A stretch of DNA of 64,000 bases from assembly GCA_041658705.1 (NCBI GenBank), contig JBAZZT010000004.1:30758-94757 (forward strand), in the 5' to 3' direction. The number at the start of each line of letters is the position of its first letter. The first letter of the stretch is position 1. This document shows, piece after piece, positions 2,882 through 58,671 of the stretch. This stretch comes from Patescibacteria group bacterium (GTDB lineage Bacteria > Patescibacteriota > Patescibacteriia > 2-12-FULL-60-25). Both the position numbers and the translations under genes were made by a program. The notes beneath the pieces are model-generated. The model was not told the DNA's origin. It saw only the letters and a program-made list of their open reading frames with translations, and did no database searches.

Positions 2882-2893
2882 ACGACCACCCAT

Positions 2894-6844
<3,951 letters not shown>

Positions 6845-28255: not shown

Positions 28256-28924
28256 ATGCTGGAATCCATTGCCCAACGATGGAAGTTTATGGCCACGGAA
28301 CAAAAGGTTTCTGTGGTCGTGCTTGGCATTTGCGGCGTACTGGCCATTGGCCTCTCGCTGTATAATTTGCGTTTGAGCGTGATGAGTCCTTTCCTGGCTA
28401 AAAAATCCGAGATGACGGCGGCTAAAAAGATCATCGGTCTGACTCAAGAAGAAGAAATCGCCAAGCAGCAGCGGATGGACACCGACGGCGACAGCTTGTC
28501 GGATTGGGATGAAGTGAACATCTATCACACCAACCCCAATTTGCGCGACTCATGCGGCGACGGTAGGGCGGATAACATCCGCGTGGTCAGCGGCAAGAAT
28601 TTGAACTGCGCCGGAAAAGCCGCGACCGGGCAGTTGGATGTTTCGGGAGTCGGTTCCATCGCTCCGACCATGGGCGGCACGCAGCAGCAGACGACGGATA
28701 ATCTGTTGAGCATGTTCGCCACCGGTACGGAGGCGGAGGCGAGTCCTGTTGAACCGGCTTTAGCGCGTGATCCCGCGGCGATCAGGGCGGCACTCAAAGG
28801 CAAAGTCGATCAGACCAAGCTCAATCAGTTGAGCGACACCCAGCTCCTTGAGTATTACGACACGGCATTAGCAGAACAGAAAAAACTCCAAGCCGAAGCG
28901 GCGACCGGCACCGCAACCCAATAA
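28256..28924 (+). CDS. Membrane-anchored protein with thrombospondin-type-3-like Ca-binding repeat
   Basis: TM segment VSVVVLGICGVLAIGLSLY followed by DTDGDSLSDWDEVNIYHTNPNLRDSCGDGRADN. Confidence 0.7.
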   Translation: MLESIAQRWKFMATEQKVSVVVLGICGVLAIGLSLYNLRLSVMSPFLAKKSEMTAAKKIIGLTQEEEIAKQQRMDTDGDSLSDWDEVNIYHTNPNLRDSCGDGRADNIRVVSGKNLNCAGKAATGQLDVSGVGSIAPTMGGTQQQTTDNLLSMFATGTEAEASPVEPALARDPAAIRAALKGKVDQTKLNQLSDTQLLEYYDTALAEQKKLQAEAATGTATQ

Positions 28925-28933
28925 CAACCTATG

Positions 28934-29075
28934 CCGTGTAAGACAAAAACTATGAGTACAGGCTGTGTGACCATTTATCTTTCTTTCGGCATCAATGGAT
29001 CGAAGTCTTACAATGCGAAAAGATCCCACTTTAATCAAAGGTCAAAAGCTAAAAAATAGTTTTTGTCTTACACGG
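28934..29075. repeat. 142-bp element bounded by perfect 19-bp inverted repeats; the right arm ends 1 nt before the giant-gene ATG
   Basis: ccgtgtaagacaaaaacta (28934..28952) and tagtttttgtcttacacgg (29057..29075). Confidence 0.85.
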
Positions 29076-29076: not shown

Positions 29077-32000
29077 ATGCTTCCCGCGTGGCTGTCCAAA
29101 AATAAAAACAAGTTCGTCCTCGGAGGACTGACCCTCGTCCTGGCCTTGGGTACGGTCATCGTGGCCTATCCGAAGAAAGCGGAAGCGAGTTTGTTGCAGG
29201 CTGATCCGAACGCGGCTATCGCGGCTCGGGCGCAACTTTGCGGCTACGTGACCGGTGCCGGCACTTCTCCGGGCGCGACTTCGATCATCGGCTTGATGCC
29301 GGAATGCCATTATTACGAAATCTACAAGGCCAAGGTGGACATGATCCAATCCACCATCCAGTTCGGAGTGGTGCGGGCTTTGCTCGGCGCGCTGCAATAC
29401 GGCACGCAGATGATCGCCCAACAGACGGCGCAGTGGATTCTCGAAGGCGCGCACGGTAAACCGTCATTCTGGACCATGAACTGGGGAGAATTCCTGGCCA
29501 ACGTGGGCGAGGACGCGGTCAACCGGTTCATCGGCGAACTGGATAAGACCATGCAGGGTTGGGGCTTGGGCAGCTTGTGTACGCCCATGTCGCTCAACAT
29601 GCGTTTGGCTTTGTACATCAAGCCCATCGTGCCGCAGGCCTTTCAAGGTTGCGACTGGGCCAAGATGAAGGGCGCGTTCAACCAGACAAAAAATACTTTT
29701 TCGCCCACCGAAATCGCGGCAAATTTGCGCAAGTCGGTCCAGCCCGGAGGCAACCAGATCGATATGATGCTCAAGGTGAACAGCGAAATCCTGGTGAACA
29801 AGGAGGCGGCGGAGAAGTGGTATGAAAAACAACGTATTGAGACGCGCGGCTTCAAATCGATCACCGATTTGATCAGCGGCAAGATCAAGACGCCGGCCGA
29901 AGTCGTGGACGAGACGGTGCGCCAATCCAACGTGGTCAAGCTGCAACATGACGTGACCACGGCGGACATCAATGCGCTGGCCATGGCCGCGTTCTGGGCT
30001 GGGTTCGAACAGTTGCCGCAAGTCGCTGCCTCGCAATTCCTGAACACCTTGGCCGTGGGCGCATTGCAGAAGTTTTTCACTTGGATTTTCGGCGGCATGA
30101 CGGGCGGCGACGAGACTTGGTATAATCTCGATTTATCCGATCCATTCGCGCAACGCAGTGCGCAACCCAAGACCGACGCATTGCAAAAAGCCTTTTCGGA
30201 CATGATCATCCCTGATCTGTTCACCAATAAAGACGAAGATTTCGTATTTGAGATGACGTCTTGCGTCGAAGGCAGCCGCTCATATTGGGGTTGCAGCATG
30301 GACGAAGGGTTGGCTCAAGCGCTGCGGGCCTCGGCGGAAAGCGGGGCTTATACCGTGGCGCGTGCAGCCGGCATCGGCGGCACCGGAGCGAGCGAATATC
30401 TGCACAAAGATTGGGAGCTGATTCCCGAAAGCGAAGTCAAGGATAACCAGGATTCGGGTTGCTACCAGCGCGCCTACTGCGCCTCGAACCTGGCCAAGCT
30501 GCGCTTTGCGCGCATCATCCCGTTGGGCTGGGAGCTCGCCGCCAATTCACCTTTCAACGTAAAAGCCAACGGCAGATATGTCACCTTGGGCCAGGTCGTC
30601 GCGGGTTTCAACTCCTGCAACGCCCAAGGACAAGTCGACGCCGAGCATCCGTGGTGCCATCTTATCAATCCCGCTTGGGTGCTTACGGCGCCGCCTTTCA
30701 AATGCCAACTCAAAGGCTATGGTACGACCCTGGCCGCGCCGGACACGCCGATGCGCCAGCAAGAATGCAGCGACCTGGTCTCCTGCTTGAAGCGCGATGA
30801 CAAGGGCAAGTGCTTGGGCCAATACGGATCATGCTTATCCGAAAAGACGGTGTGGCGTTTTGGCGCCGACTCGTGCGACCAGAAGTTCGTGAGTTGCCGC
30901 ACCTACCAGTCGCGCGCCACCGGCGCACACCAAGGCCAGAACGTATCCTATATAAGGAATACCATAGATTACGGATCGTGCAACCAGGATAACGTGGGTT
31001 GCCTGTATTATGCGACGACGCGCGACGTCACGACGACGAGCACCGAGCGCTGGGTGGCCACGACGCTCGAAGTCAAAAACAAGAAGGGCGCATTGGCCGG
31101 TTATGACATCCGCCAGATGCCGCGCGTGTATTTTGATGCCACGGTGCAGGCTTGCGATGCGTCGTCCGATGGTTGCACCAAAGTGCAGCGCGTCAATCCC
31201 GGCAGTCCGGCGTTCAACCTCGTGCGCAACGGTTCCTTCGAGGACAATTTGGACAACCTGCCGGACAAACTCGTGGCTTGGTTCGACGACAACGATAACC
31301 CGGTCGGACAGAAACCGTTCAACCCGGCGACGGGTCCGGCTTACCAAAGCGGCCAAGCGAGCTACTACAACGCCACGACGCACCAGCCCGTCACTCTTTA
31401 TCCCTACCGCCCCTACGTCTTGTCTTTTTACGCTCGTGCCGACGGGGGAGCCGCTCCCGACGTGCAGGTATTTTTGGATCTGTATCAGGCACCGAACAAG
31501 CCGGTCGTTACAACGGGTCCGGCGGTCTACCGCAGTTCCAATTGCAGCAAAAAAACCCAGACTTCAGTCGGTTTGAGCAGCTTCAAACCGGGCAACGATT
31601 GGCAGCGTTATACCTGCGAGTTCAGTTCCAACCCGGATGTGCGTTTGGGCGTGCTGAAGATATCCGTCAAGAACGCGGCGCTGGATGACGTGCAGCTTGA
31701 GGAGGCTGATCGCGCGACGGATTACATCGATGGCGCAGCGGACAATCTTCCGGTCGAACATATCAAACTGCCGCCGGAGGAATTGGGTTGCAAGGGCGAT
31801 GCCAAGACAGACCGCAAAGAGTGCGCGGATTATGCGCTCATGTGCCAAGCCACTGAAGCCGGCTGCCAGGGTTGGAGCGACGCGGGGGATGCGAGCGGAA
31901 TCGAAATCCCGGCCATCGTCTCGCCGCTTGATCGCTGTCCCAAGAGCTGCGTGGGTTACGCGGAGTATCGCAAATTGCCCTCGGCTTTCGATCTGGTCAA

Positions 32001-35000
32001 CACAGGCAACCCCACTGATCCGCAGAATGATTCCGCTGACGACACCGCGGCTTCCTTCGTGCCGAGCAAAGCCCAAGCTTGCAGCGCCGACGAAGCGGGT
32101 TGCGAAGAGCTGACTAATCTTGAAGCTTCGGCGCAAGGTGGCGAATCAAAACTTTTCTTGAGCTATGCGCGGGCTTGTAGCAAACCGGGTGACGATGCCA
32201 AGACCTTCTTCACCTGGGAGGGTTCGGAGGAGACGGGTTATCAATTGCGCACCTGGAGTTTAGTCAAAGAGCTTAACGCGGAGGGTCCGAAAATCCTGCT
32301 CAAAGCCGGTCCGGACGGCGTGCTCAAGGATCCGCAAGCCTGCACTGCCGCGACGTGGTCAGCCAAGACCGATTTGGATTGTCGTCAATTCTACGACGAG
32401 ACGGGCAAGGACTATTACCGTTATTATTCGCAAACCATCATCTCGAGCGTGGACTGCCGCGATTACCGCAAGAACAATTCGACTTCGGACGATTGCACCA
32501 AGACGAGCGGCGACCCGAATAACTACAATCCGACCAACAAAGCCTGCATCTATCACGTGCTGGCGAGCTTGAGCAACCAGTGCAAGGAAACCAACGCGGG
32601 CTGTCGCGGCTACCTGGGCACGACCGGGCGCAACACCGCGACCGTGTTGCACGAGACTTTCGCCGCCGCGACAAGCTCGCTTTTCTACGCGCCGAACAAT
32701 CAAAAGATCAAGATTTCAAACGAGGCGTTGCTGGTCGGCGATCATTCGCTGCAGATCCAAGCCAGCGACGCCAGCGTGGATTTCACTTCAGCCACCGGCA
32801 GCTTGTACACCGTGAGCTTCTGGCTCAAGACGACCAAAGCGGGGAGTGCACCGGCCAGCTTGAAACTGGGCAACACGGTCGTGGGTACGTTCAGCCTGGT
32901 GCCCGACTGGAAACGCTTCGAGGTCGGACCGTTCAAGGCCGTCGGCACCAAATCAAAGTTGACTTGGAGCGGTTTGCCCGATCCGTCCTACCTGGACGAA
33001 GTCGCGGTGGTCCGTTTGCAGGACGTGGTTTACGTCAAAAAAGATTCGTGGGTCATCCCGCCCGAGTGCGACCAGACTGCCGAAGGCATCCCGCAGCCGC
33101 GCGCCATGTTGGGCTGCCGTGAATACAAGAATCGCGCGGGCAAAGTCGAGGACGTGCGGCAATTTTCGCGCCTGTGCCGCTACGCCAGCATCGGCTGTAC
33201 CGCTTACGTCGACACACGCAACTCCGACAGTCCCTATGCCGAGACTTTCAAGCTCACCGGGCTGAACGTGCCGGATCCGAACAATCCCGCGAGCAAACTG
33301 TGGGATACGCTGTACGCGGGCGATTCAGTCGTCACTCGGCTGGCGGACCGCTATGTCTATGCGGTCGACGAGCCGGGCGTGCATTGCGCCGCCGACCAAG
33401 CTTCGTGCCGCGCGTTCGGCAAACCCACCTTCGATCCCACGGGTGCGCCATCCAGCACCTTCGAGACGGTTTATCTCAAAGACGACATCACGCAATATAT
33501 GGATGCGGGCGGCGAACCCAAGGCCTTGTGCCGACCCAAGGAACTTTTCTGCGATAAATTCACCAGCGGACAAGTCACCTCGTATTTTCGCGATCCGCTG
33601 AATCACGTCTGCGAATGGCAAGATAAAGTGGCGCTCAATAAATTCCCTGGACTGCCCGACGGCGAATATTCCGGTTGGTTCGTGATCGGCGCCGCAGTAC
33701 CCACGCCGTGTTATCCCGAAAAGATCTCGAGCGGCAATACCTTTTTGAGCGAATATTCCGGCACGCCTAATTACCGTGGTTGGACGGACACTTGCCCGGT
33801 CGAACAGTCGGAGTGCACCGAATATCGCGATTCCAACGATCACACCGACCTGGAACACCCGCAGGGCAAACCGTATTATTTCGTCGACAACAACCGGCTG
33901 GATAAAGCTTCGTGCCAAGGCAAAGTAGATCTGCTTTCCGGCTGCGTGCTGTTCCGCGACATGAACGACAGCCGCCTGACCTACAGCACCGACGCGACCT
34001 ATGCCAAGTCGCACGCGGACGGCGACGTATCCGTCGCACCAATCAATTGCAGTACCGATGCTGACAATCCGGCTTGCCAAAAAGTCGGATACTGCGTTAA
34101 CCAAAGATTCAAGATCTGGAGCAATACGAAGCAAGCCTACACGGGAGAGTCGTCGGACATGACGCAAATCCAAGAAACCAAGAAGCATATAAATGATAAA
34201 TGTACGACCGACAAAGATTGTTCGGTGACGGCGTCGGCCGTCGGTCCGTTGGCTGACGAATATCGTATTACCGGAACTTGCCAAGCCAATGACTCCAACC
34301 TGCTCGTCAAGGTAAAACTCGATCGCGATTGCCAGACCTGGCTCGGTTGCGCCAGCGGCGAGACCGTCTACGATCCGGTGCAGCAGAAGTACAAAGATTT
34401 ATGTACCGAACTCGCGACGTGCGACAAGGCGGGCGGGACGGGCAACCAATTCTGCTCGCATTACGTAGACCGTGTCAGCGCGCCGTCCGGCGTCGGTTTT
34501 CAGGAAAAAGTCATGCGTCAGGGCGCCTTCGTGGATTCCACGCTCTACGCTTCGCGTTCGGTCGGCTTCGGCGATCCGGATTATTCCAGCTTCAGCTTGC
34601 CGTACCATTTCCAAATCGCCGATCTGCAGAACCGGGCCGTGGGCTTTGAGCTCCTCGCGAACCATGCCGGTAAGGTGCGCAACAGTTACTCCGACGACTT
34701 CCGCCTGACCGCGGCCGTGCCCTTGGCGTTTGGCGGTTTTAACGCCCTCGATCCCTATGCCGCGGACATCATCAAAGACAATTTATATCCTTACCTAAAC
34801 CTGTGCCGCCATCGCCAGACCAAGGCCGTGGGTTATTATTTGGCCGACCCTGGGGATACGGCTATCCCGCGCAAACCAACGGAAAAAGTACCGCGCTGTT
34901 ATTTGGCGATTGACCGACCATATACCCAAGTCGCCTCCGACCTCCAAGGTTCGGGCGTCAACCCGCGCAACGCGCAGAATTTGGCTGATGTGTTCGAGCA

Positions 35001-38000
35001 GTCGGGCAACGTCAAGGCCAACCAACAACTTACCCAAGCCTTCCCTAATTCAGAATGCCGCTCATATCCCGAGACCAATTCTCCGTTCGACGCGCGCTTC
35101 GTCAAAGATTGGAATCTGGATGCCGAACCGCCCACGCCGCTGAATCTCGTCGAAGGTTACGCTGGCGTGCCGACTTGTGAGTACGGCGAAAATTGCGATT
35201 GCAGCTATCAAAAAGTCAATTACGCCAACCGTTCCAAATATTACGCGGCGTACGGCGCATCTTTCCCGCCCGGCGTGTGCCAGGGCGGTGATAAGGACGG
35301 GCAGGCTTGTCGTCCCAACGAGGGAAGCGGAGCCGTTGCGCTCACTCTTGCGCCGACGAGCACCGCAGGCGGCAGTGAAATCCCGGACATGAACCTGTGC
35401 ACCGGCGGCGGCTCTTGCGTGCCTGTGCAATCCTACAGCTTGATCCGTGGCATCGCCGGACAATGTTTGCAGCGCGACAATGCGCGCACCCTGGGCGGCG
35501 CCAAGGAATACAATCCTTGCTTGGTGTGGAATCCCGCGCCGGTGTTGTTCGGCAAAGATGACATCTACCATTATTATCCGACGGCCGGCTATCTGCCGCC
35601 TGCCGAATCAGGGGAGTACTACTGCGTCTCGGATGCGCGCGAGCCCCGCAGCTTCAAAACCAGCGTGGAAAACAACATCATGGGTTGGAATTGGTTCGAT
35701 AAAGATAATCCGCTGGTCTTGATCCAGAAAAATCTTGATACCTCCATCATCGCCGAACCACCGGGCAAGATGACGGCATTCTGGTTCGATGAATGTTTCA
35801 GCATGGATCCGGGCGGCGCCTCGGACAGCGACCTGCCCTTAGGTTGGTCCGGCATGCCCGGGTTTACGGGCAGCGGCAACGACGACGACTTCTACGAAAG
35901 AGCTTGTGGCTGGGGACACGCCTCGATCGACGGGACCAACGCGCGCGGCACGGATTCCGGAGCGAGTTGCGCTTGGGTCAGGACGCAGAATTCCGGCGCC
36001 AACATGGCGGCTGATTTTACGGCCGGCCGTTGGGTGACGACCGGACAGGGCGTGAGCCGGAACTACGCGGAATATTTCGTGCCCATCAATGGCAAGTATT
36101 GGGCCAAGTGGCTTTTGCAAAGCAAGACGGATCCGGGGGAAGTCGACATCAAGAACGCGCTGCTCGAAAAGAATTTCAGCTATTTCGACTTCAAGCCGCT
36201 CTACAAGACGGGCGCCGGCGGCGGAGCGTGCTCCTTGAGCGGCTGGTGGGCGGATGAGTTCCCGTTGGAGGGGACTGCCGCCGGCGTGGACAAGGGGCAG
36301 AACCAACTGATCAAGAACATCATGGCCGAGTGGAGCAAACTGACGTCGCAAAAATCCGATTTCGTGCGCAACCAAAAAGGCGAGCTCATCAAACTGCCGT
36401 GCTTATACAACGACAAGAACACGCAGGATGAGTCGGCCGACGATTATTGCTACTACAAATTCTGGCAAGCGGATTTTCGTGGCCAAGGCGCCAAAAAATT
36501 CCAGATGATGGATGATGACTTCGGCGGCGCGCACAAACTTTCCGCCCCGGACGTGCTCTACATGGAATCAGACGGTTCCAAGCCGTTCTTCTCGATCCGC
36601 GCCATGTTTGAGGACGCTTCGCTGACGGACAACGCCATCAAGGAAGAGGACATCAAAGGCAACAGCGGCAAACTGGGCGGCCCCTTCCGCTTCGTGGGTT
36701 GGTGGGTCACGGCCTCGTTCCCCGGCGCCAGCAACAACCGCTACATCTACATGACGCTCGATATCGGCCACGCCGACATCTGCAAAGAGGTGGCGCGCGT
36801 CAGGTCCTCGGTCAACGGCGACAGCGTGGCGTTCACGGATCGCGTTTGGGACGGATCAGGCTTTAGCCTGCCGCTCCTGGGTTATCTGTACGGCGAGACG
36901 AATGCACCGTTCGGTTCGGCGCGGCACACACGTGAGATCGGCATGGAGCCGCTGTTCCAAGTCAAAGACAAGAAAGTCGCCGCCAACTTCCGCATGAGCG
37001 TGGCGAAGCCGACTTTCATTTCCGCCGGCGCCAAATTTTTCCGCTTGGGTGAGTTGCCCAAAGCCAATTGGGCCTGGCTCTCCAACCTGTTCGCCAAAAT
37101 CTACAACGTCTACCGCTATTACGATTTGCCCGTCGACAAGTCCTCCTACGCCTGCGTGAGCGGGCCGCAGTTCGGCAAACGCTGCTCGCCGGATCCGCTT
37201 TCGAGCCAAAGCACCTGCGGCTGGCAGGGCACCTGCAACCCGACCCTGCTCCAAGTGGATGCGGGAAGCGCTTTCTGCAACTCGCTGTCCGGAGTGAACG
37301 CCGGCCAAGCCTGCGGCGCCGGCGGAGGCAGCGGACTCGGCAGCTATCATGTATGCCACGCTGCGCCTTTGCGTAACGTTGGCGGACAGCTCGCGCCGCA
37401 ATATGCGCCGTGCCAGGTGGATTCCGCGCTGTGGAGCACTAATAATGATCATTATACCTACACAGGCACGGCCAGTTCCGATCCGTTCAATGCTGTGACC
37501 GTGCAACATTGCATAGACGCCAAATCCACAAACTGCATTAACCTCACGCGAGCCACGGCGGCCCAGGCCGGAGCCTTCAAGTGCGCCAACAACGCCGTGC
37601 ATTTCCCCGACGGAACCCGCGCCTGGTGCCGCAAACCCAGCGGCGGCAATGCTTCGACGGATTGTCCGATTGAAGTGCACGGTGATTGCGATGGCACGGC
37701 AGGGCATTGCGCACCCGGCTGGCGCGACGGAACGTACCAGGCTCAAACCGGAGGATACGAATACGTCAAATGCAGCAATAAGGATTCGGATTCCGCATGT
37801 TCATTCACCTGGCAGAACTGGTGGTACAACGATATGAAGAGGGCTTCGGGTTTTCCTGAAAAGCCCATGCCTTACCCGGATGAACACGCCATCGTTGCAC
37901 AAGTGCAACACGCTGAAGGCGCGTTCTTCAACGTCCAAGTCGATCCCATCAACGGCAGTTACCCGATCAACACCAACTATCCGGTGAACGGTTGGGTGCC

Positions 38001-39963
38001 TGACCCGGCCACGGCCGCCAACATAAAGATCGAAGGCAACCTGTGGTGGATGGGCGGGGATTGGGGCGCTTGGGGTCAAATCGGCGATACCAACGGCGCT
38101 GATCCGGGCAAGGATATCGGCAGCAAGAATTTGGCCGGCGCCAGATATCTTGACCGGGCCGATTGGCAGGGCCTCAACAGATTCCCCGGAGCTTTCGTCT
38201 TCGCCGTGTCGGGGCAATATCTGTCCTGCAACGGTCCTGGCGATTGCGGAACTAAGCAATGGAGCGAGATGTACATCCCGGGACACTGCGAAGCGTTGCC
38301 CGTCGATTATCACGAGTGCGCAAATATCAAGAAACATGCTGATGCCATGGGGGAGGTGAAGGACTATAACAACGACGGTAAAAATGAGTGCCCGAACACC
38401 CCAGACATTCCGAATTATTCCTTGGTGACGGCCCAGCAATGGGGCGGAGGTCAGATTACCCTAACGAGATGGCACGGTGATAGCGCATCCAAGCTTGGTA
38501 TCTGCGAAGGCGGCGGGAATGAGGGCGGTTTCTGCACGGACAGCAAGGATTGCAAGCCGCTGTGGGTGGGCGGTAAGGAAACAGTCGAGTCGATGGAGTA
38601 TTGCAAGTCCGTGTCGAAAACTGACGGCACTCCGAACTCCGGCGCGTTCGGTGGCACGGCCTGGAGCTGTTTAGCCGATACCGGGGACCCTAACTCGAAC
38701 AACCCTGACCTTGACAACAACAGCTGTACCCATGGCGCCGGATATCAGAAGAGACCCGATGTGTGCGGCTTGGATCCCAATCGCGCCGATTGCCTGACCG
38801 GCATCTTGGAACGGGATACGGTCTCACCGCCGTCTTATGACCAAGCCCAAAGGACGCCGCCGACTGACGTGACCGCCGGCCTGTTCACGCCGTCTTACAT
38901 CGCGAAGTTCAACAATAATAACGACACGAGTTTGGCGCGGAATTATTCCTACATGGCTTACTACGCGCCGCGGCCGCCGCAGATCGCGGCACCTGACACC
39001 TCGCGCCAATGCCCTGGCCCGGGACAATGCCCCATCGCGCAAGTCGGCGCTTTCAGCCTGGACGGTACAAGCGAGGGCAAAGTGGCGTATGTCGGCGGGC
39101 AAGCCTTGTCTACGATTCGTTTCTACGGCTGGGCCGCGGACGATCAAGCCGGCCTCAAGGATCTGATCGTCGATTGGGGAGATGGACATCGCCAGCAGTA
39201 TCGCGACGTGCAGATGAAGAACAAAAAACCGTTCTGCGGCAGCACCAGGGAATGCGAATTCACGCCCGGCCTAAGCTGCACCACGGATCGCGATTGTCCG
39301 CCTTCGGCCGGCCGTTGCATCGAAGCTGGATTCTGCCAGAGCCAGCCTGCCCAACGCTGCCACCAGGACGCGGATTGCACGGCTCCGGGCGCAGCAGCGG
39401 AGGACAAGTGCGTGACTAGGCTCACCTTCGGCAACAGCGATGAGGATTGCGAGCAAAATTATTTCGAATTCACTCACGTCTACTCGTGTCCGCAGGTCAA
39501 TAATTTGGAGGCGTGCGGCGCGACATCGAGGTGCTCCGGCGACAATGACCGACCCTGCGCCGCCAACAATCCTTGCGCGCCGGGCGATCAATGCGTGGCT
39601 GGTTTGGCCAAGAGCGGCGGTTGCTTTGACAGCCAATTCTCATCTTGCCGCTTTACCCCCAAAGTTTATCTCAAGGATAATTGGGGTTGGTGCGCGGGCG
39701 AGTGCCGTAACGAAATCGCAGGCGGCAAACTCTCGGGCGGATTCGGAACCACCAACAAAGCGCTTTTGCCCAACGGCGGTTGCTACGGCGGTACGGATAT
39801 CTATCAAAACAGCGACGCCAAAGCGCTGCGGCCAGTCGGGACCGATGCGGCGAACAAGAATGTCTACGACATGTGTGACCCAGATAAATTCGTCGGACAG
39901 AAGACCAGTTATCGACCCTGGGTCGTATTCAAAGGCGCGCTGCAGTTGGGGGTAGGGAAGTAG
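29077..39963 (+). CDS. Giant secreted / cell-surface Cys-rich protein (3628 aa)
   Basis: Uninterrupted 10.9-kb ORF with an N-terminal signal/anchor FVLGGLTLVLALGTVIVAYP. About 138 Cys by hand count. Recurrent C-x5-6-C-x2-3-aromatic units. Two CBM/jelly-roll-like segments (NLVRNGSFED..LDDVQLEE; YTVSFWLKT..YLDEVAVVRL). PKD-like VDWGDGH near the C-terminus. Confidence 0.9.
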   Translation: MLPAWLSKNKNKFVLGGLTLVLALGTVIVAYPKKAEASLLQADPNAAIAARAQLCGYVTGAGTSPGATSIIGLMPECHYYEIYKAKVDMIQSTIQFGVVRALLGALQYGTQMIAQQTAQWILEGAHGKPSFWTMNWGEFLANVGEDAVNRFIGELDKTMQGWGLGSLCTPMSLNMRLALYIKPIVPQAFQGCDWAKMKGAFNQTKNTFSPTEIAANLRKSVQPGGNQIDMMLKVNSEILVNKEAAEKWYEKQRIETRGFKSITDLISGKIKTPAEVVDETVRQSNVVKLQHDVTTADINALAMAAFWAGFEQLPQVAASQFLNTLAVGALQKFFTWIFGGMTGGDETWYNLDLSDPFAQRSAQPKTDALQKAFSDMIIPDLFTNKDEDFVFEMTSCVEGSRSYWGCSMDEGLAQALRASAESGAYTVARAAGIGGTGASEYLHKDWELIPESEVKDNQDSGCYQRAYCASNLAKLRFARIIPLGWELAANSPFNVKANGRYVTLGQVVAGFNSCNAQGQVDAEHPWCHLINPAWVLTAPPFKCQLKGYGTTLAAPDTPMRQQECSDLVSCLKRDDKGKCLGQYGSCLSEKTVWRFGADSCDQKFVSCRTYQSRATGAHQGQNVSYIRNTIDYGSCNQDNVGCLYYATTRDVTTTSTERWVATTLEVKNKKGALAGYDIRQMPRVYFDATVQACDASSDGCTKVQRVNPGSPAFNLVRNGSFEDNLDNLPDKLVAWFDDNDNPVGQKPFNPATGPAYQSGQASYYNATTHQPVTLYPYRPYVLSFYARADGGAAPDVQVFLDLYQAPNKPVVTTGPAVYRSSNCSKKTQTSVGLSSFKPGNDWQRYTCEFSSNPDVRLGVLKISVKNAALDDVQLEEADRATDYIDGAADNLPVEHIKLPPEELGCKGDAKTDRKECADYALMCQATEAGCQGWSDAGDASGIEIPAIVSPLDRCPKSCVGYAEYRKLPSAFDLVNTGNPTDPQNDSADDTAASFVPSKAQACSADEAGCEELTNLEASAQGGESKLFLSYARACSKPGDDAKTFFTWEGSEETGYQLRTWSLVKELNAEGPKILLKAGPDGVLKDPQACTAATWSAKTDLDCRQFYDETGKDYYRYYSQTIISSVDCRDYRKNNSTSDDCTKTSGDPNNYNPTNKACIYHVLASLSNQCKETNAGCRGYLGTTGRNTATVLHETFAAATSSLFYAPNNQKIKISNEALLVGDHSLQIQASDASVDFTSATGSLYTVSFWLKTTKAGSAPASLKLGNTVVGTFSLVPDWKRFEVGPFKAVGTKSKLTWSGLPDPSYLDEVAVVRLQDVVYVKKDSWVIPPECDQTAEGIPQPRAMLGCREYKNRAGKVEDVRQFSRLCRYASIGCTAYVDTRNSDSPYAETFKLTGLNVPDPNNPASKLWDTLYAGDSVVTRLADRYVYAVDEPGVHCAADQASCRAFGKPTFDPTGAPSSTFETVYLKDDITQYMDAGGEPKALCRPKELFCDKFTSGQVTSYFRDPLNHVCEWQDKVALNKFPGLPDGEYSGWFVIGAAVPTPCYPEKISSGNTFLSEYSGTPNYRGWTDTCPVEQSECTEYRDSNDHTDLEHPQGKPYYFVDNNRLDKASCQGKVDLLSGCVLFRDMNDSRLTYSTDATYAKSHADGDVSVAPINCSTDADNPACQKVGYCVNQRFKIWSNTKQAYTGESSDMTQIQETKKHINDKCTTDKDCSVTASAVGPLADEYRITGTCQANDSNLLVKVKLDRDCQTWLGCASGETVYDPVQQKYKDLCTELATCDKAGGTGNQFCSHYVDRVSAPSGVGFQEKVMRQGAFVDSTLYASRSVGFGDPDYSSFSLPYHFQIADLQNRAVGFELLANHAGKVRNSYSDDFRLTAAVPLAFGGFNALDPYAADIIKDNLYPYLNLCRHRQTKAVGYYLADPGDTAIPRKPTEKVPRCYLAIDRPYTQVASDLQGSGVNPRNAQNLADVFEQSGNVKANQQLTQAFPNSECRSYPETNSPFDARFVKDWNLDAEPPTPLNLVEGYAGVPTCEYGENCDCSYQKVNYANRSKYYAAYGASFPPGVCQGGDKDGQACRPNEGSGAVALTLAPTSTAGGSEIPDMNLCTGGGSCVPVQSYSLIRGIAGQCLQRDNARTLGGAKEYNPCLVWNPAPVLFGKDDIYHYYPTAGYLPPAESGEYYCVSDAREPRSFKTSVENNIMGWNWFDKDNPLVLIQKNLDTSIIAEPPGKMTAFWFDECFSMDPGGASDSDLPLGWSGMPGFTGSGNDDDFYERACGWGHASIDGTNARGTDSGASCAWVRTQNSGANMAADFTAGRWVTTGQGVSRNYAEYFVPINGKYWAKWLLQSKTDPGEVDIKNALLEKNFSYFDFKPLYKTGAGGGACSLSGWWADEFPLEGTAAGVDKGQNQLIKNIMAEWSKLTSQKSDFVRNQKGELIKLPCLYNDKNTQDESADDYCYYKFWQADFRGQGAKKFQMMDDDFGGAHKLSAPDVLYMESDGSKPFFSIRAMFEDASLTDNAIKEEDIKGNSGKLGGPFRFVGWWVTASFPGASNNRYIYMTLDIGHADICKEVARVRSSVNGDSVAFTDRVWDGSGFSLPLLGYLYGETNAPFGSARHTREIGMEPLFQVKDKKVAANFRMSVAKPTFISAGAKFFRLGELPKANWAWLSNLFAKIYNVYRYYDLPVDKSSYACVSGPQFGKRCSPDPLSSQSTCGWQGTCNPTLLQVDAGSAFCNSLSGVNAGQACGAGGGSGLGSYHVCHAAPLRNVGGQLAPQYAPCQVDSALWSTNNDHYTYTGTASSDPFNAVTVQHCIDAKSTNCINLTRATAAQAGAFKCANNAVHFPDGTRAWCRKPSGGNASTDCPIEVHGDCDGTAGHCAPGWRDGTYQAQTGGYEYVKCSNKDSDSACSFTWQNWWYNDMKRASGFPEKPMPYPDEHAIVAQVQHAEGAFFNVQVDPINGSYPINTNYPVNGWVPDPATAANIKIEGNLWWMGGDWGAWGQIGDTNGADPGKDIGSKNLAGARYLDRADWQGLNRFPGAFVFAVSGQYLSCNGPGDCGTKQWSEMYIPGHCEALPVDYHECANIKKHADAMGEVKDYNNDGKNECPNTPDIPNYSLVTAQQWGGGQITLTRWHGDSASKLGICEGGGNEGGFCTDSKDCKPLWVGGKETVESMEYCKSVSKTDGTPNSGAFGGTAWSCLADTGDPNSNNPDLDNNSCTHGAGYQKRPDVCGLDPNRADCLTGILERDTVSPPSYDQAQRTPPTDVTAGLFTPSYIAKFNNNNDTSLARNYSYMAYYAPRPPQIAAPDTSRQCPGPGQCPIAQVGAFSLDGTSEGKVAYVGGQALSTIRFYGWAADDQAGLKDLIVDWGDGHRQQYRDVQMKNKKPFCGSTRECEFTPGLSCTTDRDCPPSAGRCIEAGFCQSQPAQRCHQDADCTAPGAAAEDKCVTRLTFGNSDEDCEQNYFEFTHVYSCPQVNNLEACGATSRCSGDNDRPCAANNPCAPGDQCVAGLAKSGGCFDSQFSSCRFTPKVYLKDNWGWCAGECRNEIAGGKLSGGFGTTNKALLPNGGCYGGTDIYQNSDAKALRPVGTDAANKNVYDMCDPDKFVGQKTSYRPWVVFKGALQLGVGK

Positions 39964-40154: not shown

Positions 40155-40970
40155 TCAGGCAATCCGCGGCTTAAGTCCGCCTTGCAGGATGCGCAGGTGC
40201 GGCACGTCGCGGTGGCTGGAGAGGAGATGGAGCGTGCGCAAAGTCACGAAGTGGCTGGTCAGGAGATCTCCTTGCGAACCCCGTCGCGCATAATCTTGAA
40301 GCGCCAGCTTGATCCAACGTTCGACTTCGAGCGTGCCCTTGAACTCTTTCGAGCGGAGCAGATCCAGGGCGGCCGCGCCCAGCGGGGGCGGAGTCGAACC
40401 GTCGGGCAGGGTGAGCCGTTGGTGCATGGCGCGGATAAGATCCGTGTGGTCATTTTTTCGCTCTGACCAACTGGGCCAGTCCAGGGCCGGCGCCACGCAA
40501 ATTTCACGGAGTTCGGGCGACAGCTTGGGCGAGTTGTCGTTGTGCGCCGGAAAAGGATCGAGGCGGCAGGCGACCAGCATGAACGGGAAATCCTCACGCC
40601 ATTCCGCGAGCTCACGTTGGATGTCGCTCGGGATGTCGTCGCCACGCATGAAGAGCAACGACTTGCCTCGCACTTTGCGCAGCATGGCGGCGTCTGGATA
40701 TCTGTCGTCGATGATGATGGATCCGTTGCTTCCGCGTTGGCGGGCCAGTTGCACGAACAGGCTTTTGAGCTCCAGCCGTTCCAGATCAGGGATCTTGAGT
40801 GCCACGACCCAGCCGGCTTGGGCGCGGGAAAGCACTCCGGCGAGCAAGAGCTTCATGGCCGCACTTTTGCGCACTAGAGGAAAAAGCGTTTGAACCGTCC
40901 GTGCTTTTTTTCCAGCCATATCGCACCAGGTGAAAAGAGCCTTGTCCCGGATCCGCCGGGCCGGCGCCAT
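40155..40970 (-). CDS. Hypothetical protein (271 aa), possibly a degenerate AAA+/sigma54-activator-like domain without a Walker A motif
   Basis: Layout SLLFMRGDDIP..LVAC..WSERKNDHTDLIRAMHQRL..AALDLLRSKEFKGTLEVERWI loosely follows the GTLFLDEI..RxIAAT..LRERxEDI..WPGNVREL order. No GxxGxGK motif. The family call is weak. Confidence 0.5.
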   Translation of the reverse strand: MAPARRIRDKALFTWCDMAGKKARTVQTLFPLVRKSAAMKLLLAGVLSRAQAGWVVALKIPDLERLELKSLFVQLARQRGSNGSIIIDDRYPDAAMLRKVRGKSLLFMRGDDIPSDIQRELAEWREDFPFMLVACRLDPFPAHNDNSPKLSPELREICVAPALDWPSWSERKNDHTDLIRAMHQRLTLPDGSTPPPLGAAALDLLRSKEFKGTLEVERWIKLALQDYARRGSQGDLLTSHFVTLRTLHLLSSHRDVPHLRILQGGLKPRIA

Positions 40971-41109: not shown

Positions 41110-42150
41110 ATGCCCGCCAACCCCTTCGAAACCCCTAAAAGTAAAATAGCCCCTGAACCTGTCGAAGGGCTACCTTATACTTCCGGGATTCGTCGGCAGG
41201 ATTTGCCGACCCACGTCAGGCGCTACGCCGATAAACTCGCTGCGCAGATAAAAGAAATCTACGCCAAATACGGAGCCGCTAACTTCGAGCAGTTAAAAGA
41301 GAACAAGAAGCTATCAGCTCAAGACGCACGCAAGGTGGCTGATTTGTTCAAAGCCTTTCAGAAAGCCATCGAGACTAAAGACGTTGAACTAGACCTCGAA
41401 GAAGCCATCGAAATCCTGGACCGCGAGAATGTCCACGGCGTTGAGGACGTCGAAGCCATGCTAGGCGAAGGTTTCGTCGATATCTCCAAAGTCCCACCCA
41501 TCCCATACACTCCTGAAGACCTAGCCAAATCCAAAGAGATCAAAGAGAAGACTGGCGTCGAAGAGATGCTCATCCTCTTCGTCGCTGACAAGGACGGAAC
41601 GCTACTCACGGGAGAACGCATGAACGGACTCATCCAAGCTGAATACACCAAGCTCGGCCTGGGTAAATTCCTGTTCAACACCGACTCATATAAGAACGAG
41701 GACTTCTTCAAGAAGCTGGGCTTTAACTACGAATGGAAGCTCATCTCCAAACAGACCATCCCCGATTCAAAGAACAAGCGCCATCATCACGAACCAGGAG
41801 ACAGCTTCACGCATCAAGACACCCAAGAGTTCGCCATCGAGGAATACGCGAAGAAACTTGATATTCCACGTGACCAATTACATCGTCCAGAGCCGTTCCA
41901 GATGCTCTACGCCACCGCTCTCCATCTGATTGCGACCGAACGCCTCAATGGCCAGGGCAAAGGCGAACGCATCCTCGTAAACGAGTATCACTGGTCTGAT
42001 GTTCTTTCCTCGGATGGGAGCTCTGTGCTCGTCGGCTATGCCGATGCGGACGGCGCGCGCGTGAGCGGGAGCTCCCGTGTCGCTCGGCTTGGTGGTCTGG
42101 GGGTGGGTCTTTCGCGTGAGCCTTTTTCTTCCAAATCCTTGGACACTTGA
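41110..42150 (+). CDS. Paralog C of the variable-protein family, adjacent to the TR-like element
   Basis: 346 aa. Same conserved body as 9832..10875 and 10898..11908, with a divergent C-terminal block. Confidence 0.85.
   Translation: MPANPFETPKSKIAPEPVEGLPYTSGIRRQDLPTHVRRYADKLAAQIKEIYAKYGAANFEQLKENKKLSAQDARKVADLFKAFQKAIETKDVELDLEEAIEILDRENVHGVEDVEAMLGEGFVDISKVPPIPYTPEDLAKSKEIKEKTGVEEMLILFVADKDGTLLTGERMNGLIQAEYTKLGLGKFLFNTDSYKNEDFFKKLGFNYEWKLISKQTIPDSKNKRHHHEPGDSFTHQDTQEFAIEEYAKKLDIPRDQLHRPEPFQMLYATALHLIATERLNGQGKGERILVNEYHWSDVLSSDGSSVLVGYADADGARVSGSSRVARLGGLGVGLSREPFSSKSLDT
42004..42150 (+). other. VR-like hypervariable block 3 (3' end of paralog C)
   Basis: Same length as the TR-like element. 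By hand count, 18 of 26 template adenines are substituted versus 14 of 91 other positions over 39 codons. Confidence 0.65.
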
Positions 42151-45463: not shown

Positions 45464-46380
45464 ACGCGGCGTGCGATGCGATCCGGAAGACCTTGTGTTT
45501 CCACCGGGCCTGGCGATATGCTCCGACGCTGCCCGAACTTTTCTCGACTTTGGAAACGACGACGCCGATCAGCGAACAAGATTTTTCAGCGGCTTTGCGC
45601 GGCTTGGAGAATGAAGGGTGGGTCAGACAAGGCAGGGGACGCGTCGGGTTGGCGGAAAACTTCGACGAAATCGTCGCCGAGATTGCGCGGCGCGATGCGC
45701 TGCAAGCGGCCAAACGGCGACGCGCTCGGCGTTTTGCTTTTTGGCTCAAATTTTTAGGCGCGCGGTTCGTCGCTTTATCCAACACCACCGCTTTGGGCAA
45801 TGCGCGGCGCGACGGAGACTTGGATTTTTTCGTGGTGGTGAGGCGAGGCGCGCTTTGGTCGACGCGTTTTTTGAGCGCCGGCCTGTTTCGCTTGCTCGGC
45901 CTCCTGCCCAGTCAAAAGCATGCGCGCGACACGGCTTGCTTGTCGTATTTCGTGACCGACGACGCGCTGGATCTGTCCGCTCACCTGCTGGCGCCGGACG
46001 ATCCGTACTTCCGTCATTGGTTCCTGTCTCTCCTGCCTTTATATGATGACGGCGTGTCGCAGGATTTATGGCGTGCCAATCCCAAGATAACCTCGCGTCA
46101 CGCCATGGCGCGACCTTGGATTGCCCCGCCCGATTTGCGTTTAGCTTTTGGCTACCGTCTACCGTCAGGGCGCATGGCATGCGCCCCTACCCTCTATCGT
46201 CTACTCGAATCTCCCTCCCGCGCTTTTCAATTGCGTTGGTTCCCGCCAGGCATCAAACAACTCATGAACCGCGATACGCGAGTCGTGGTCAATGAGCAGA
46301 CGCTCAAACTCCACGTCAATGATCGGCGCGAAGAGTATCGTCGCGCTTATGAGGCGTTAATCTCCAAAGTCACGCTATGA
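45460..46380 (+). CDS. Hypothetical protein (306 aa) carrying an in-frame REP/CT-word insertion
   Basis: ATGA overlaps with both neighbouring genes indicate an operon. GDLDFFVVV hints at a nucleotidyltransferase-like fold, which is weak evidence. Confidence 0.65.
   Translation: MNAACDAIRKTLCFHRAWRYAPTLPELFSTLETTTPISEQDFSAALRGLENEGWVRQGRGRVGLAENFDEIVAEIARRDALQAAKRRRARRFAFWLKFLGARFVALSNTTALGNARRDGDLDFFVVVRRGALWSTRFLSAGLFRLLGLLPSQKHARDTACLSYFVTDDALDLSAHLLAPDDPYFRHWFLSLLPLYDDGVSQDLWRANPKITSRHAMARPWIAPPDLRLAFGYRLPSGRMACAPTLYRLLESPSRAFQLRWFPPGIKQLMNRDTRVVVNEQTLKLHVNDRREEYRRAYEALISKVTL
46150..46203. repeat. Composite repeat (GGCTACCGTCTACCGTC plus a REP palindrome plus a CT-word) inside a coding region
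   Basis: ggctaccgtctaccgtcagggcgcatggcatgcgcccctaccctctatcgtctac. Read in frame it encodes GYRLPSGRMACAPTLYRLLE. Confidence 0.8.
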
Positions 46381-47657
46381 GCGGCTGGCGCGAAAAATTA
46401 TTCGAGATTTCATGGCGTGCTGCCATCCTAGTTTTGCCTTGGCAGACGCGTTGGTATCGTCCCGCGGAACTCGGCGGCTGGCCGTGGGAGCAGGGGAGTC
46501 TGGTCGTTTATGCAGCCTGGATCCCGATTCTCGCGACCATTCTTTTCGGTTTTACGCCGCGCCGCGATAAACGCTTGGTCTTGCCTGCGATCCTCGCGCT
46601 TCTGCTCATCGCCGCGGGTTTTTCCACCGGCGCGCCCTGGCAGCCGATGCTTGTGTGGTGGGTGCAGATTTTATTGCTCGGATTCTTCGTTTGGACTTTG
46701 TTCGATAAAAAAGTGGCAGTGCGCAAATTACTTTTTTGGTTCGTGACGTCGTTGCTTGCGCCAACGCTTTTGGGTGCATACCAATTCGCGCAACAAAAAG
46801 CTTTTGCCGCTTCGTGGCTCGGTTTGGCCGCGCATGATCCGCGCGAGCTCGGCGTCTCGGTCGTGGAGTGGAGCGAGTTCCGCTTACTGCGCGTCTACGG
46901 CAGCTTTCCGCATCCCAACATCTTCGGCGGTTGGCTCGCGGCCGGGATCCTGGCCGCCGTTCATGCCGCGGGTTCAGCTCAAGATAGATTTCGCGCTTAT
47001 GCCTACGCCTTGGCCGCCGCGGTTTTTTCGGGCGTGCTCATCTTGACCTTCAGTCGCAGCGCCATGCTCGCCGCCGCCTTAAGCCTCGCCGTCTTGGGCA
47101 CAAGATCATTTCTGCACCGCAAGTCAGCGGAAACGAATTTCAGTTTCGTGGTTCTTGCGCTGGTCTGCGCTGTGCTGGGCGCGGGCTTGATCGGAATCAC
47201 GCAACTCGAACCTTTGACCACGCGAGTCAAAGCGCAAGACCGACTTGAGCTCATCTCGCAGGCAGAACGACAATCGAGTCTGGCTGAAGGTTGGGAGATG
47301 TTCAAGCGTCGCCCTGTCTTGGGTACGGGAGCCAATGCTGAACTCTTTTTCATGGCGCAGACCGCGCGCAAAAATTCCCAAGGTAAATTAAATGCGCCGC
47401 TCGAATCCCCGCACGATTTTTTCTTGCTCCTCCTGGTTGATTTTGGTTTCGTGGGCAGTCTCGTCTTTATACTTTTGTCAGTTTTGAGTTTGCGCCAGCT
47501 GACGCCGCGTTTGGAATTTTTTTCTTGGTTACTGCCGCTTGCGTTGTTCGATCATTACGTTTGGTCATATTGGTCCGGGCTGGCGCTTTTGGCCTTGGTT
47601 TTGTTGCTTTTTAGCCGTAGCGCTCCATCCATTGACAAACCCGCCGAAGCCGCCTAG
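46377..47657 (+). CDS. O-antigen ligase (Wzy_C) family membrane protein
   Basis: 426 aa, polytopic, with the characteristic LTFSRSAMLAAALSLAVLG loop region. Confidence 0.8.
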   Translation: MSGWREKLFEISWRAAILVLPWQTRWYRPAELGGWPWEQGSLVVYAAWIPILATILFGFTPRRDKRLVLPAILALLLIAAGFSTGAPWQPMLVWWVQILLLGFFVWTLFDKKVAVRKLLFWFVTSLLAPTLLGAYQFAQQKAFAASWLGLAAHDPRELGVSVVEWSEFRLLRVYGSFPHPNIFGGWLAAGILAAVHAAGSAQDRFRAYAYALAAAVFSGVLILTFSRSAMLAAALSLAVLGTRSFLHRKSAETNFSFVVLALVCAVLGAGLIGITQLEPLTTRVKAQDRLELISQAERQSSLAEGWEMFKRRPVLGTGANAELFFMAQTARKNSQGKLNAPLESPHDFFLLLLVDFGFVGSLVFILLSVLSLRQLTPRLEFFSWLLPLALFDHYVWSYWSGLALLALVLLLFSRSAPSIDKPAEAA

Positions 47658-53928: not shown

Positions 53929-54330
53929 TCAGCGCTCAAGTCGGATGAATATGCCGAACGGCGGTATCCATCTGTAACCATGCTCGCGGGTTCCGCTGAT
54001 AAACAGATGAAGGCCCTCGTCTTGGCAGAAGTCAAAGAGCATAAGGGCGGCACCTTTGAGTTCGTCGCGCGTCGGAAAGAAGTTGCCTTTCCCGGCCGGC
54101 CATTCCATATACCGGAAGTCTCCGACGTCGATTACTAAGCCTCCACGATCGACGGTATTTTCGATGTAGGCCGGGATTTTGGCGATTATTTCCTCGGCCC
54201 AGGCCCGTCGTTCGGCGTCGAGCCCTTCGGTTCGATCCACCCGTTTTTCGGGGTGCCGTTCCCCGAGTCTTTTTCTCCATTCGCTTGCAAGGGACATGGC
54301 TGACGTTCCTTTCTCAGCAAGGTTTACCAA
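53929..54330 (-). CDS. Hypothetical protein (133 aa; start may be ATG 54297)
   Basis: ORF lies between the bidirectional terminator and the epimerase promoter region. No family recognised. Confidence 0.5.
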   Translation of the reverse strand: MVNLAEKGTSAMSLASEWRKRLGERHPEKRVDRTEGLDAERRAWAEEIIAKIPAYIENTVDRGGLVIDVGDFRYMEWPAGKGNFFPTRDELKGAALMLFDFCQDEGLHLFISGTREHGYRWIPPFGIFIRLER

Positions 54331-54406
54331 GTCCTATCTTTGTGGTCAAGCCGTTGACATGAGCTACTTTTTGAATACGTTTCAATCTAGGCTACACTGT
54401 CGGCAT

Positions 54407-55333
54407 ATGAAAACAGCCATCGTGACCGGCGGAGCGGGGTTCATCGGTTCGCATCTGGTCGACGCTTTGGTCGAGCGAAAGTTCAAAGTCGTCGTGCTCG
54501 ATGACTTGTCGACCGGGTTCAGGAAAAACATCAATCCAAAAGCGACTTTCAAAAAACTTGATATCCGGGGACCGGCCGCAGCCGCGCTCATAAAAAAACT
54601 CAAGCCCGCGGTCGTCTTCCATCTGGCGGCGCAGGCCAGCATCCCGGTTTCGGTCAAAGATCCGGTCATGGATGCCGAGACGAATGTCATGGCTACTTTG
54701 CGGCTCTTGGAAGCTTCAGCCCAAGCCAAAGTCAAACGCTTCATCTTCGCGAGCACAGGCGGCGCTTTATCCTCGGAGCAGACCATCTTGCCCACCGACG
54801 AAAAACACGCGGCGGCTCCGCAATCGCCTTATGCCATCGCCAAAGTCGCGAGCGAATATTACGGCGCTTTCTATCGAGCGGCACGCGGATTGCCTTTCAC
54901 GTCTTTCCGTTTCGCCAACGTCTATGGCCCGCGCCAGAATCCGCACGGTGAGGCTGGCGTGGTGGCGATTTTTTGCAAACGCATGTTGGCGGACGAAACG
55001 CTCAAGCTAAACGGCACAGGCGAGCAGACGCGGGATTACGTCTTCGTGGGCGACGTGGTGGCGGCGCTGATGGCGGGCCTGGACAAGCCCGAAGCCCCCG
55101 GACCGTATCATGTGGGAACGGGAATCGAGACTTCGGTCAAGCGGATCTTCGCCCTGTTGAGCAAGTTCAGTGCCTACGAAAAAAAGCCGCTCAAGGGTCC
55201 GGCTGATATCGGAGCGCCATTGCGCAGCGCCCTCGACTCATCCAAACTGCGGCATGACATGGGTTGGAGACCTAAGATGGTTTTTGAACAAGGTTTGAAT
55301 ATAACTTTAGATTGGTTCAGGACGCAAGTCTAA
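54407..55333 (+). CDS. NAD-dependent epimerase/dehydratase (UDP-glucose 4-epimerase-like)
   Basis: Rossmann motif TGGAGFIGSHL at the N-terminus and the YxxxK motif (YAIAKVASE). ATG 54407 is used instead of 54179. Confidence 0.88.
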   Translation: MKTAIVTGGAGFIGSHLVDALVERKFKVVVLDDLSTGFRKNINPKATFKKLDIRGPAAAALIKKLKPAVVFHLAAQASIPVSVKDPVMDAETNVMATLRLLEASAQAKVKRFIFASTGGALSSEQTILPTDEKHAAAPQSPYAIAKVASEYYGAFYRAARGLPFTSFRFANVYGPRQNPHGEAGVVAIFCKRMLADETLKLNGTGEQTRDYVFVGDVVAALMAGLDKPEAPGPYHVGTGIETSVKRIFALLSKFSAYEKKPLKGPADIGAPLRSALDSSKLRHDMGWRPKMVFEQGLNITLDWFRTQV

Positions 55334-58572: not shown

Positions 58573-58601
58573 TTGACAAAATGTGTAAAGTGTGTTATCT
58601 T
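58573..58601 (+). promoter_or_regulatory. Candidate promoter (TTGACA, 17-nt spacer, TATCTT)
   Basis: ttgaca aaatgtgtaaagtgtgt tatctt. Lies about 70 nt upstream of ATG 58672. Confidence 0.45.
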
Positions 58602-58671
58602 TTCTTGTCTCGTGTCATTTGAGGCGCGGATCGTCCCCTCATGGGACGCCCTTTACACAAGGAGAATTTGC

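Follow-up and report, generated by a model that had tools for sequence, protein, structure and literature searches.

A lineage-restricted family of giant, cysteine-rich, Sec-type exported proteins in Candidatus Uhrbacteria and its candidate role in cell contact

Background

Candidatus Uhrbacteria are uncultured, ultra-small members of the Candidate Phyla Radiation (CPR), and their lifestyle is inferred solely from the genes that their genomes lack. Here we describe a 10.9-kb gene for a giant, cysteine-rich protein, together with a small partner gene directly upstream of it. Both lie in a 64,000-base stretch (hereafter the window) of the genome of a Patescibacteria group bacterium (assembly GCA_041658705.1, contig JBAZZT010000004.1, positions 30,758 to 94,757). 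The gene had been pointed out in a first-pass annotation made from the letters of the window without database searches.

The closest described systems are found in other CPR lineages. Candidatus Peribacter riflensis encodes large extracellular Cys-rich proteins with signal peptides, for which a role in rigidity and/or attachment has been proposed; they average 1,655 aa with ~7% Cys and belong to a strain-variable cluster of 14 genes (Anantharaman et al. 2016, PMC4736985). Among cultivated Saccharibacteria, the epibiont Southlakia epibionticum has three essential envelope proteins, SEML1_0890, SEML1_0891 and SEML1_0315, that carry polysaccharide-binding domains (Wang et al. 2023, PMC10633639), and it is routine to interpret large surface proteins elsewhere in the Patescibacteria as adhesins (PMC11809585, PMC13059738). 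None of these proteins appears to be homologous to the family described here. Like the Peribacter proteins, the giant protein comes from the CPR, bears a signal peptide, is rich in Cys and nearly unannotated, and its genome encodes a disulfide-forming protein; in contrast to them, it is 3,628 aa long with 3.8% Cys, is a single-copy core protein, and in a phylum-wide sample its family appears in three related families of its own class only. It belongs to the known kind of giant Cys-rich extracellular CPR proteins, a descriptive class that implies no homology (PMC4736985). The opinion of the first-pass annotation that such a protein is unusual for bacteria has to be qualified accordingly, as proteins of this kind were already described in the CPR and a second, unrelated one is encoded in the same genome. 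With the SEML1 proteins it shares the character of a CPR envelope-type protein with glycan-binding-type modules, which in the SEML1 proteins are thought to target host glycans; the latter, however, carry VCBS, dockerin and FN3 domains, are not giant and are not reported to be disulfide-rich.

Comparisons outside the CPR are of two kinds. The giant protein has two jelly-rolls with weak profile matches to the carbohydrate-binding modules (CBM) of the CBM4, CBM9, CBM16 and CBM22 type (PF02018; 1gui, 2zey, 3oea, 4xup), but these make up only ~300 of its 3,628 residues and no catalytic partner domain was detected. Very large size and secretion are shared with the adhesins of the RTX/type I secretion system (T1SS) kind (LapA, SiiE) and with LPXTG-anchored Gram-positive adhesins. 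Fibrillar adhesins place ligand-binding modules on a long scaffold, as may be the case here, whereas the scaffold of the giant protein is non-repetitive, predicted to be disulfide-stapled and Sec-exported, and has no tandem Ig- or cadherin-type repeats. No RTX or T1SS domains were found with Pfam; internal repeats are weak, an N-terminal Sec signal is present instead, and the conserved C-terminus has no LPXTG sortase motif.

Results

An intact gene family restricted to one class

As the first-pass annotation had stated, the gene at 29077-39963 (+) is a single uninterrupted open reading frame (ORF) of 3,628 codons that occupies ~17% of the window (10,887 of 64,000 bases). Its product, of roughly 390 kDa, contains exactly 138 Cys, in agreement with the earlier count of about 138 and an even number; this corresponds to 3.8% of residues, as compared to 1.15% when all ORFs of the genome are taken together. 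A total of 134 database homologs were identified, all labelled 'hypothetical protein' and all originating from metagenome-assembled genomes of Candidatus Uhrbacteria or Patescibacteria. Most of them are 3,400-3,800 aa long, align collinearly with 98-100% of the query and share 42-48% identity with it. Relatives are present in at least 205 species-representative genomes, closed or near-closed chromosomes among them, and in 123 of the 127 genomes of the organism's own order (104 of 106 when only high-quality genomes are considered). The gene is effectively single-copy, because double matches represent fragments split across contigs, and no paralog was detected within its own 1.48-Mb genome. In a sample of 151 genomes spread evenly across the phylum, the family was limited to the family of the window's organism and two sister families from its class, with one marginal match elsewhere (E = 7e-6). 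A literature search found no paper on these proteins. They constitute an unnamed, lineage-restricted and well-conserved family of real genes.

The first-pass annotation had named frameshifts or assembly chimerism as what would undermine its description. One observation might favor an assembly artefact, a chimera or a decaying pseudogene, namely a transposon-like element that lies between the gene and its partner and is peculiar to this genome (see below). However, the 10.9-kb frame contains no stop, and full-length homologs from more than 100 independently assembled genomes, closed chromosomes included, run collinear with it, which makes a frameshift or chimera very unlikely; in addition, the protein keeps all conserved Cys and the GC content of the gene is about that of its flanks. 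We regard an artefact as next to impossible and already effectively refuted. A further idea, that the C-terminal tail exists as a mobile module in small proteins, was withdrawn since most of the short matches have no start Met and are pieces cut off at contig ends.

Export signal, cysteine units and disulfide bonds

The N-terminal signal or anchor noticed earlier is a real hydrophobic segment followed by A-E-A↓S, with a K/N-rich n-region and a single hydrophobic core. An N-terminal hydrophobic 17-mer occurs in 81 of 95 homologs, and the N-termini listed for them show AxA sites (e.g. PEAKA↓Q). Further transmembrane (TM)-like segments beyond residue 100 are absent from all 95 full-length homologs, and no recognizable anchor of any other kind was seen in the conserved RPW-V-F-GALQLGV end. 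A Sec-type signal peptide in the absence of other TM segments and of an anchor implies that the mature protein is secreted through Sec, and the earlier reading of the protein as secreted is therefore well supported.

Conservation of the Cys residues is far above that of the remaining sequence: across 33 homologs, 124 of the 138 are at least 90% conserved, versus a mean identity of 38% at other positions. The number of Cys is even in 78 of the 95 full-length homologs (binomial p = 1.6e-10). Lineage-variable Cys columns co-occur as local pairs (420/425, 496/501, 2240/2277 and 2243/2264), the pair 496/501 in exactly the same 24 sequences, and the non-conserved Cys of the present copy also form neighboring pairs. 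The genome encodes VKOR and a DsbA-like Thioredoxin_4 domain in one open frame (contig C6:79700-80812 (-), 370-391 aa), a fusion that is likely the disulfide oxidase of the cell envelope, as well as three further DsbA-like genes (C6:30932-31429, C15:6593-7069 and C1:182732-183196); DsbB was not found in the genome. The DsbA-like genes on C15 and C1 adjoin other Cys-rich ORFs. The share of proteins with an even number of Cys is 65% among exported-type and 44% among cytoplasmic-type proteins of this genome (Fisher p = 3e-5); an excess of this kind is reportedly how extracytoplasmic disulfide formation usually shows in a genome. Given the conserved Cys, the even counts, the paired variable Cys, the VKOR-DsbA genes and the genome-wide even-Cys bias, the most economical reading is that the protein is probably held by ~69 disulfides. 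Conserved, paired Cys thus coincide with an extracytoplasmic oxidation system in the same genome, as in disulfide-bonded exported proteins, the 'disulfide-rich' description is well supported, and the earlier suggestion to look for thiol-disulfide oxidoreductases gave a positive outcome.

Many Cys are placed at short distances. The protein has 33 pairs of neighboring Cys at spacing 6-7, as compared to a mean of 8.4 +/- 2.8 and a maximum of 21 in 1,000 shuffles of its own sequence. Two types of short clamps can be distinguished in the family alignment: i) C-x6-C followed two residues on by Y, F or W, in about a dozen copies exclusively within residues 579-1580, and ii) C-x5-C, in the form C-x2-D-x-D-C or C-G-x2-G-x-C, located in the middle of the protein and in its tail; the latter is as dense in Cys as the first-pass annotation had indicated, with 13 Cys in residues 3401-3500 alone. 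All ten units that it listed are present and eight fit the C-x6-C-x2-aromatic pattern, whereas two (CDASSDGCTKV and CSADEAGCEEL) end in V or L. A module of ~50 aa around the C-x6-C hairpin weakly recurs at residues ~605-660, 1166-1222 and 1345-1416 (hhalign probability ~80%); as this was all that profile self-comparison yielded, a tandem-repeat architecture was rejected, and the C-x6-C unit appears to be a recurring short motif rather than a repeat domain. Comparison with described repeat families gave no match to the Cys unit in Pfam, NCBIfam or PDB: no NCBIfam family, including the Myxococcus cysteine-rich repeat TIGR02232, was found for the protein at E<=1, and the Pfam scan for Cys-repeat families returned UCR_hinge and Toxin_16 alone, at chance level. 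The protein is not rich in Ca-binding motifs, a single conserved D-x-D-x-N being located at residue 3211.

Domain architecture and evolutionary rates

Searches of the protein with Pfam and NCBIfam, and of the family profile against all PDB sequences, gave only two marginal matches, both of the CBM4/9 type. They fall exactly on the two segments that the first-pass annotation had called jelly-roll or CBM-like, and the structural models fold accordingly. Jelly-roll 1 matches Pfam CBM_4_9 (PF02018) with 21.8 bits (E 2.6e-4) as an isolated segment and with 14.2 bits in the whole protein, and weakly matches PDB 4d0q in profile searches; many homologs carry a precomputed PF02018 match. For jelly-roll 2, the family profile matches the laminarinase CBM4 of PDB 1gui (E 0.012).

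AlphaFold2 models were built for residues 100-1299 and 2429-3628. The first (44-sequence alignment, mean predicted local distance difference test score (pLDDT) 68, predicted template modelling score (pTM) 0.33) combines a low-confidence helical N-domain with confident beta-rich blocks at ~389-540 and 970-1180 and two confident beta-sandwiches. A Foldseek search with this model retrieved CBM16, CBM4 and CBM22 modules (2zey, 3oea, 2y6j, 1gui and 4xup; E 2e-6 to 1e-4, target TM-score 0.57-0.68), so that the predicted jelly-roll fold is superimposable on solved modules of these types. The same search matched the CBM-like receptor-binding domains of clostridial binary-toxin B components. A match to Elapor1 was discarded (TM-score 0.07-0.14, root-mean-square deviation ~25 Å). 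In the Cys-rich core at ~389-708, which shares 60-70% identity with the closest relatives, pLDDT is 70-90 at 389-540 and low at 545-700.

The second model (mean pLDDT 73.6, pTM 0.66) is weak in the hypervariable stretch, with pLDDT <50 at residues 2941-3010 and 3090-3112. It has no significant fold neighbor in PDB (best Foldseek E 0.19), and no viral fold similarity was found for the C-terminal third in BFVD. For residues 1300-3628, no Pfam family was found in 84 homolog segments (43 from the middle and 41 from the C-terminal part), and the profiles of these segments match no PDB sequence at E<=5. The VDWGDGH motif, described earlier as PKD-like, is present and its DWGDG part is invariant across the family. 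A PKD domain (PF00801 or PF18911) at this position was nevertheless rejected, as there was no Pfam match at E<=10 in residues 3290-3400, nor any Pfam match to PKD in the 41 homolog C-terminal segments, and Foldseek aligned PKD domains only at E 3-6.

When measured against the closest genomes, the conserved cores (residues 401-600, 901-1200, 1301-1600 and 3301-3400) have 60-73% identity, and the neighboring genes in the same comparison 65% (SMC), 58% (VanW) and 76-84% (NusA and YidC). The cores therefore evolve about like SMC and VanW and are less conserved than NusA and YidC. Identity drops to ~41% in the segment of jelly-roll 1 (residues 701-900), 37-52% in jelly-roll 2, 31-41% in residues 1801-2100 and 23-45% in the indel-rich residues 2801-3200. 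The pattern is that of a rigid conserved scaffold with faster-evolving, candidate ligand-binding parts.

Partner gene and genomic context

The partner gene (Table 1) immediately precedes the giant gene in 66 of the ~68 loci for which upstream sequence was available, and it is found upstream of it in both sister families as well. Its acidic TSP3-type motif DTDGDSLSDWDE gives a Pfam match to TSP3_bac (E 3.8e-4) that does not reach the curated cut-off. The gap between the two genes is -4 to +33 bp in most loci, and this near-zero spacing implies an operon, often with translational coupling. In the present genome the gap is 152 bp, as compared to <=33 bp in nearly all other loci, owing to a genome-specific insertion of 142 bp. 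The inserted element has a predicted fold of -49.8 kcal/mol. Related copies are found at C1:22489-22618, C7:9402-9548 and C5:67529-67591, and the element therefore looks like a member of a small family of miniature inverted-repeat transposable elements (MITE). It stops 1 nt before the ATG of the giant gene and may affect translation initiation.

Farther upstream of the giant gene, HSP20 is encoded in 46 loci and a VanW/PG_binding_4 protein in 42 loci; NusA and YidC are encoded downstream. No immunity-like gene is conserved beside the giant gene across loci. No linkage of the gene pair to a T4SS-like cluster was seen: secretion or pilus genes were not found among the window ORFs scanned with Pfam, and VirB4 (PF03135) was not found in the genome. 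The contig of the giant gene has one weak AAA_10 match ~40 kb away, and T4SS_pilin arrays are located on contigs C7, C14 and C1; that at C7:54900-57550 (-) consists of six small VirB2-like T4SS_pilin (PF18895) genes in tandem.

Table 1. Features of the giant gene, its product and the partner gene (window coordinates; residues refer to the giant protein)
Feature	Position	Strand	Description
Partner gene	28256..28924	+	222 aa; N-terminal TM anchor, conserved TSP3-type motif (DTDGDSLSDWDE), conserved Cys pair
MITE-like insertion	28934..29075		142 bp, 19-bp perfect terminal inverted repeats; between partner and giant genes
Giant gene	29077..39963	+	One open frame, 3,628 aa, 138 Cys
Sec signal peptide (predicted)	29077..29187	+	Residues 1-37; n-region KNKNK, hydrophobic core 13-31, A-E-A↓S; from hydropathy
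N-domain	29374..30231	+	Residues ~100-385; Cys-poor, mainly helical; pLDDT mostly 35-70; moderate conservation
Most conserved Cys-rich core	30241..31200	+	Residues ~389-708; holds the first C-x6-C hairpin units
Jelly-roll 1, CBM4/9-like	31201..31716	+	Residues ~709-880; Pfam, PDB profile, Foldseek
Conserved Cys-rich beta region	31717..32673	+	Residues ~881-1199; C-x6-C units at 916, 923, 1002, 1169; pLDDT 80-94 at ~970-1180
Jelly-roll 2, CBM4-like	32674..33036	+	Residues ~1200-1320; model beta-sandwich, pLDDT 72-88
Conserved region	33037..34056	+	Residues ~1321-1660; four more C-x6-C-aromatic units; weak internal repeat with 605-660, 1166-1222
Middle region	34057..37476	+	Residues ~1661-2800; conserved blocks, no detectable relatives
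Indel-rich hypervariable region	37477..38676	+	Residues ~2801-3200; column identity 0.13-0.24, 30-54% gaps
Conserved Cys-dense C-terminal region	38677..39960	+	Residues ~3201-3628; invariant DWGDG, RPW-V-F-GALQLGV end, no anchor motif; pLDDT 80-96

A second giant Cys-rich ORF is located at C14:17108-27133 (-) and encodes 3,341 aa with 156 Cys; its N-terminus matches T4SS_pilin (PF18895, 53 bits). The two giant proteins belong to the same organism and are alike in size, Cys richness and secretion, the one on C14 being fused to a pilin. Paralogy between them was rejected, as no sequence similarity was detectable.

Several other ORFs of the window were also noted. Directly downstream of the giant gene on the opposite strand, a 271-aa ORF without a Pfam family (40155-40970 (-)) has homologs of 29-34% identity at the same position in five closely related loci only. 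Three paralogs of ~340 aa with near-identical N-termini and no Pfam family are encoded at 41110-42150, 9832-10875 and 10898-11908, the first of which is not a conserved neighbor of the giant gene in other loci. Within 15 kb downstream of the giant gene there are an O-antigen-ligase-like (Wzy_C) membrane protein (46377-47657 (+)) and an NAD-dependent sugar epimerase/dehydratase (54179-55333 (+)), which indicate surface-glycan synthesis genes in the wider neighborhood. The 254-aa ORF at 58573-59337 (+) matches no Pfam family; with 13 Cys and a hydrophobic N-terminus, it may encode another small disulfide-rich exported protein.

Discussion

The function that we favor, and to which we assign even chances, is that of a disulfide-stapled, glycan-binding surface fiber that is docked by the partner protein and used in cell contact. 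The protein would be exported through Sec with cleavage of the signal peptide and then oxidized outside the membrane by the VKOR-DsbA system, which would staple its structure with ~69 disulfides, many of which would clamp beta-hairpins through short C-x5/6-C pairs. The mature protein would remain on the cell surface through docking to the partner with the TSP3-type motif, which is anchored in the membrane and co-transcribed, and could there act as the core cell-contact structure of the lineage. The two CBM-type jelly-rolls, and perhaps also the hypervariable region 2801-3200, would bind glycans on another cell (host) or an envelope polymer, the former being the most plausible target because CPR bacteria are presumed to be symbiotic. 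Within this chain, the export signal, the conservation of the family and of its pairing with the partner gene, the evidence for disulfides and the CBM-type folds are findings, whereas retention by the partner, glycan binding and the contact role are inferences. The mosaic of conserved cores and a hypervariable region speaks for the proposal, as do the precedents from Peribacteria and Saccharibacteria, and the first-pass label 'adhesin-like' is accordingly plausible as a candidate reading. Several observations weigh against this proposal. The CBM_4_9 match of this particular copy is below the Pfam gathering threshold of 25.9 bits, and no recognized adhesin domain (Ig, cadherin, FN3 or vWA) was found in the protein. 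Such strict conservation as a single-copy core gene linked to housekeeping genes is less usual for adhesins, since these tend to exist in multiple copies and to vary between strains; it suits a structural role equally well. Finally, the proposed docking to the partner is taken from gene order alone.

The same properties can be explained by a structural component of the envelope, such as an S-layer-like lattice, a sheath or a wall scaffold, that stabilizes the ultra-small cell and whose jelly-rolls bind polymers of its own wall. Such a role fits the core, single-copy and housekeeping-linked conservation nearly as well as the contact role does: the gene is near-universal and syntenic with VanW/PG_binding_4, HSP20, SMC, NusA and YidC, its conserved cores change at about the rate of the neighboring VanW envelope protein, and the compact C-terminal model is in keeping with a rigid building block, as is the density of disulfide staples. 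In contrast, neither SLH nor another known S-layer or wall-anchoring domain appeared in the Pfam and NCBIfam scans, profile self-comparison revealed no lattice-forming repeat architecture, a hypervariable region rich in indels would be more usual for an interaction surface, and most known S-layer proteins are smaller than 3,628 aa. We consider this explanation rather unlikely, if deserving of serious attention. A released effector, enzyme- or toxin-like, whose target is a host's or competitor's envelope, with CBMs that direct it to a polysaccharide and an unrecognized catalytic domain in the dark regions, is improbable. CBM4/16/22-type modules do usually accompany glycoside hydrolases, the signal peptide is of the cleaved kind with no anchor elsewhere, and ~2,300 residues without an assigned fold could hide a catalytic domain; however, no catalytic family emerged from Pfam, NCBIfam, PDB profiles or Foldseek, no conserved immunity-like gene lies alongside, and the membrane-anchored partner that invariably accompanies the protein speaks for its staying at the cell.

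Conclusions

By comparing one giant ORF with its homologs across the phylum, we defined a gene family of which ~90% of the protein has no detectable Pfam relative and 2,300 residues also have no relative among PDB sequences, making it a source of new disulfide-rich folds. An intact, single-copy gene of 10.9 kb is a very large investment for genomes of ~1 Mb, and the protein thus probably plays a central part at the cell surface, which makes it a candidate for the host-contact apparatus. The family also shows that Uhrbacteria depend on extracytoplasmic oxidative folding by VKOR-DsbA, with a bearing on where these bacteria can live. Tentatively, and with more doubt than belief, we suggest that the giant protein and its partner form an undescribed, lineage-defining surface organelle of Uhrbacteria, a non-repetitive, disulfide-stapled fiber or lattice composed largely of new folds and used in host-cell contact. 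If so, it would provide the first molecular handle on how these uncultured bacteria attach to or sense their partners.

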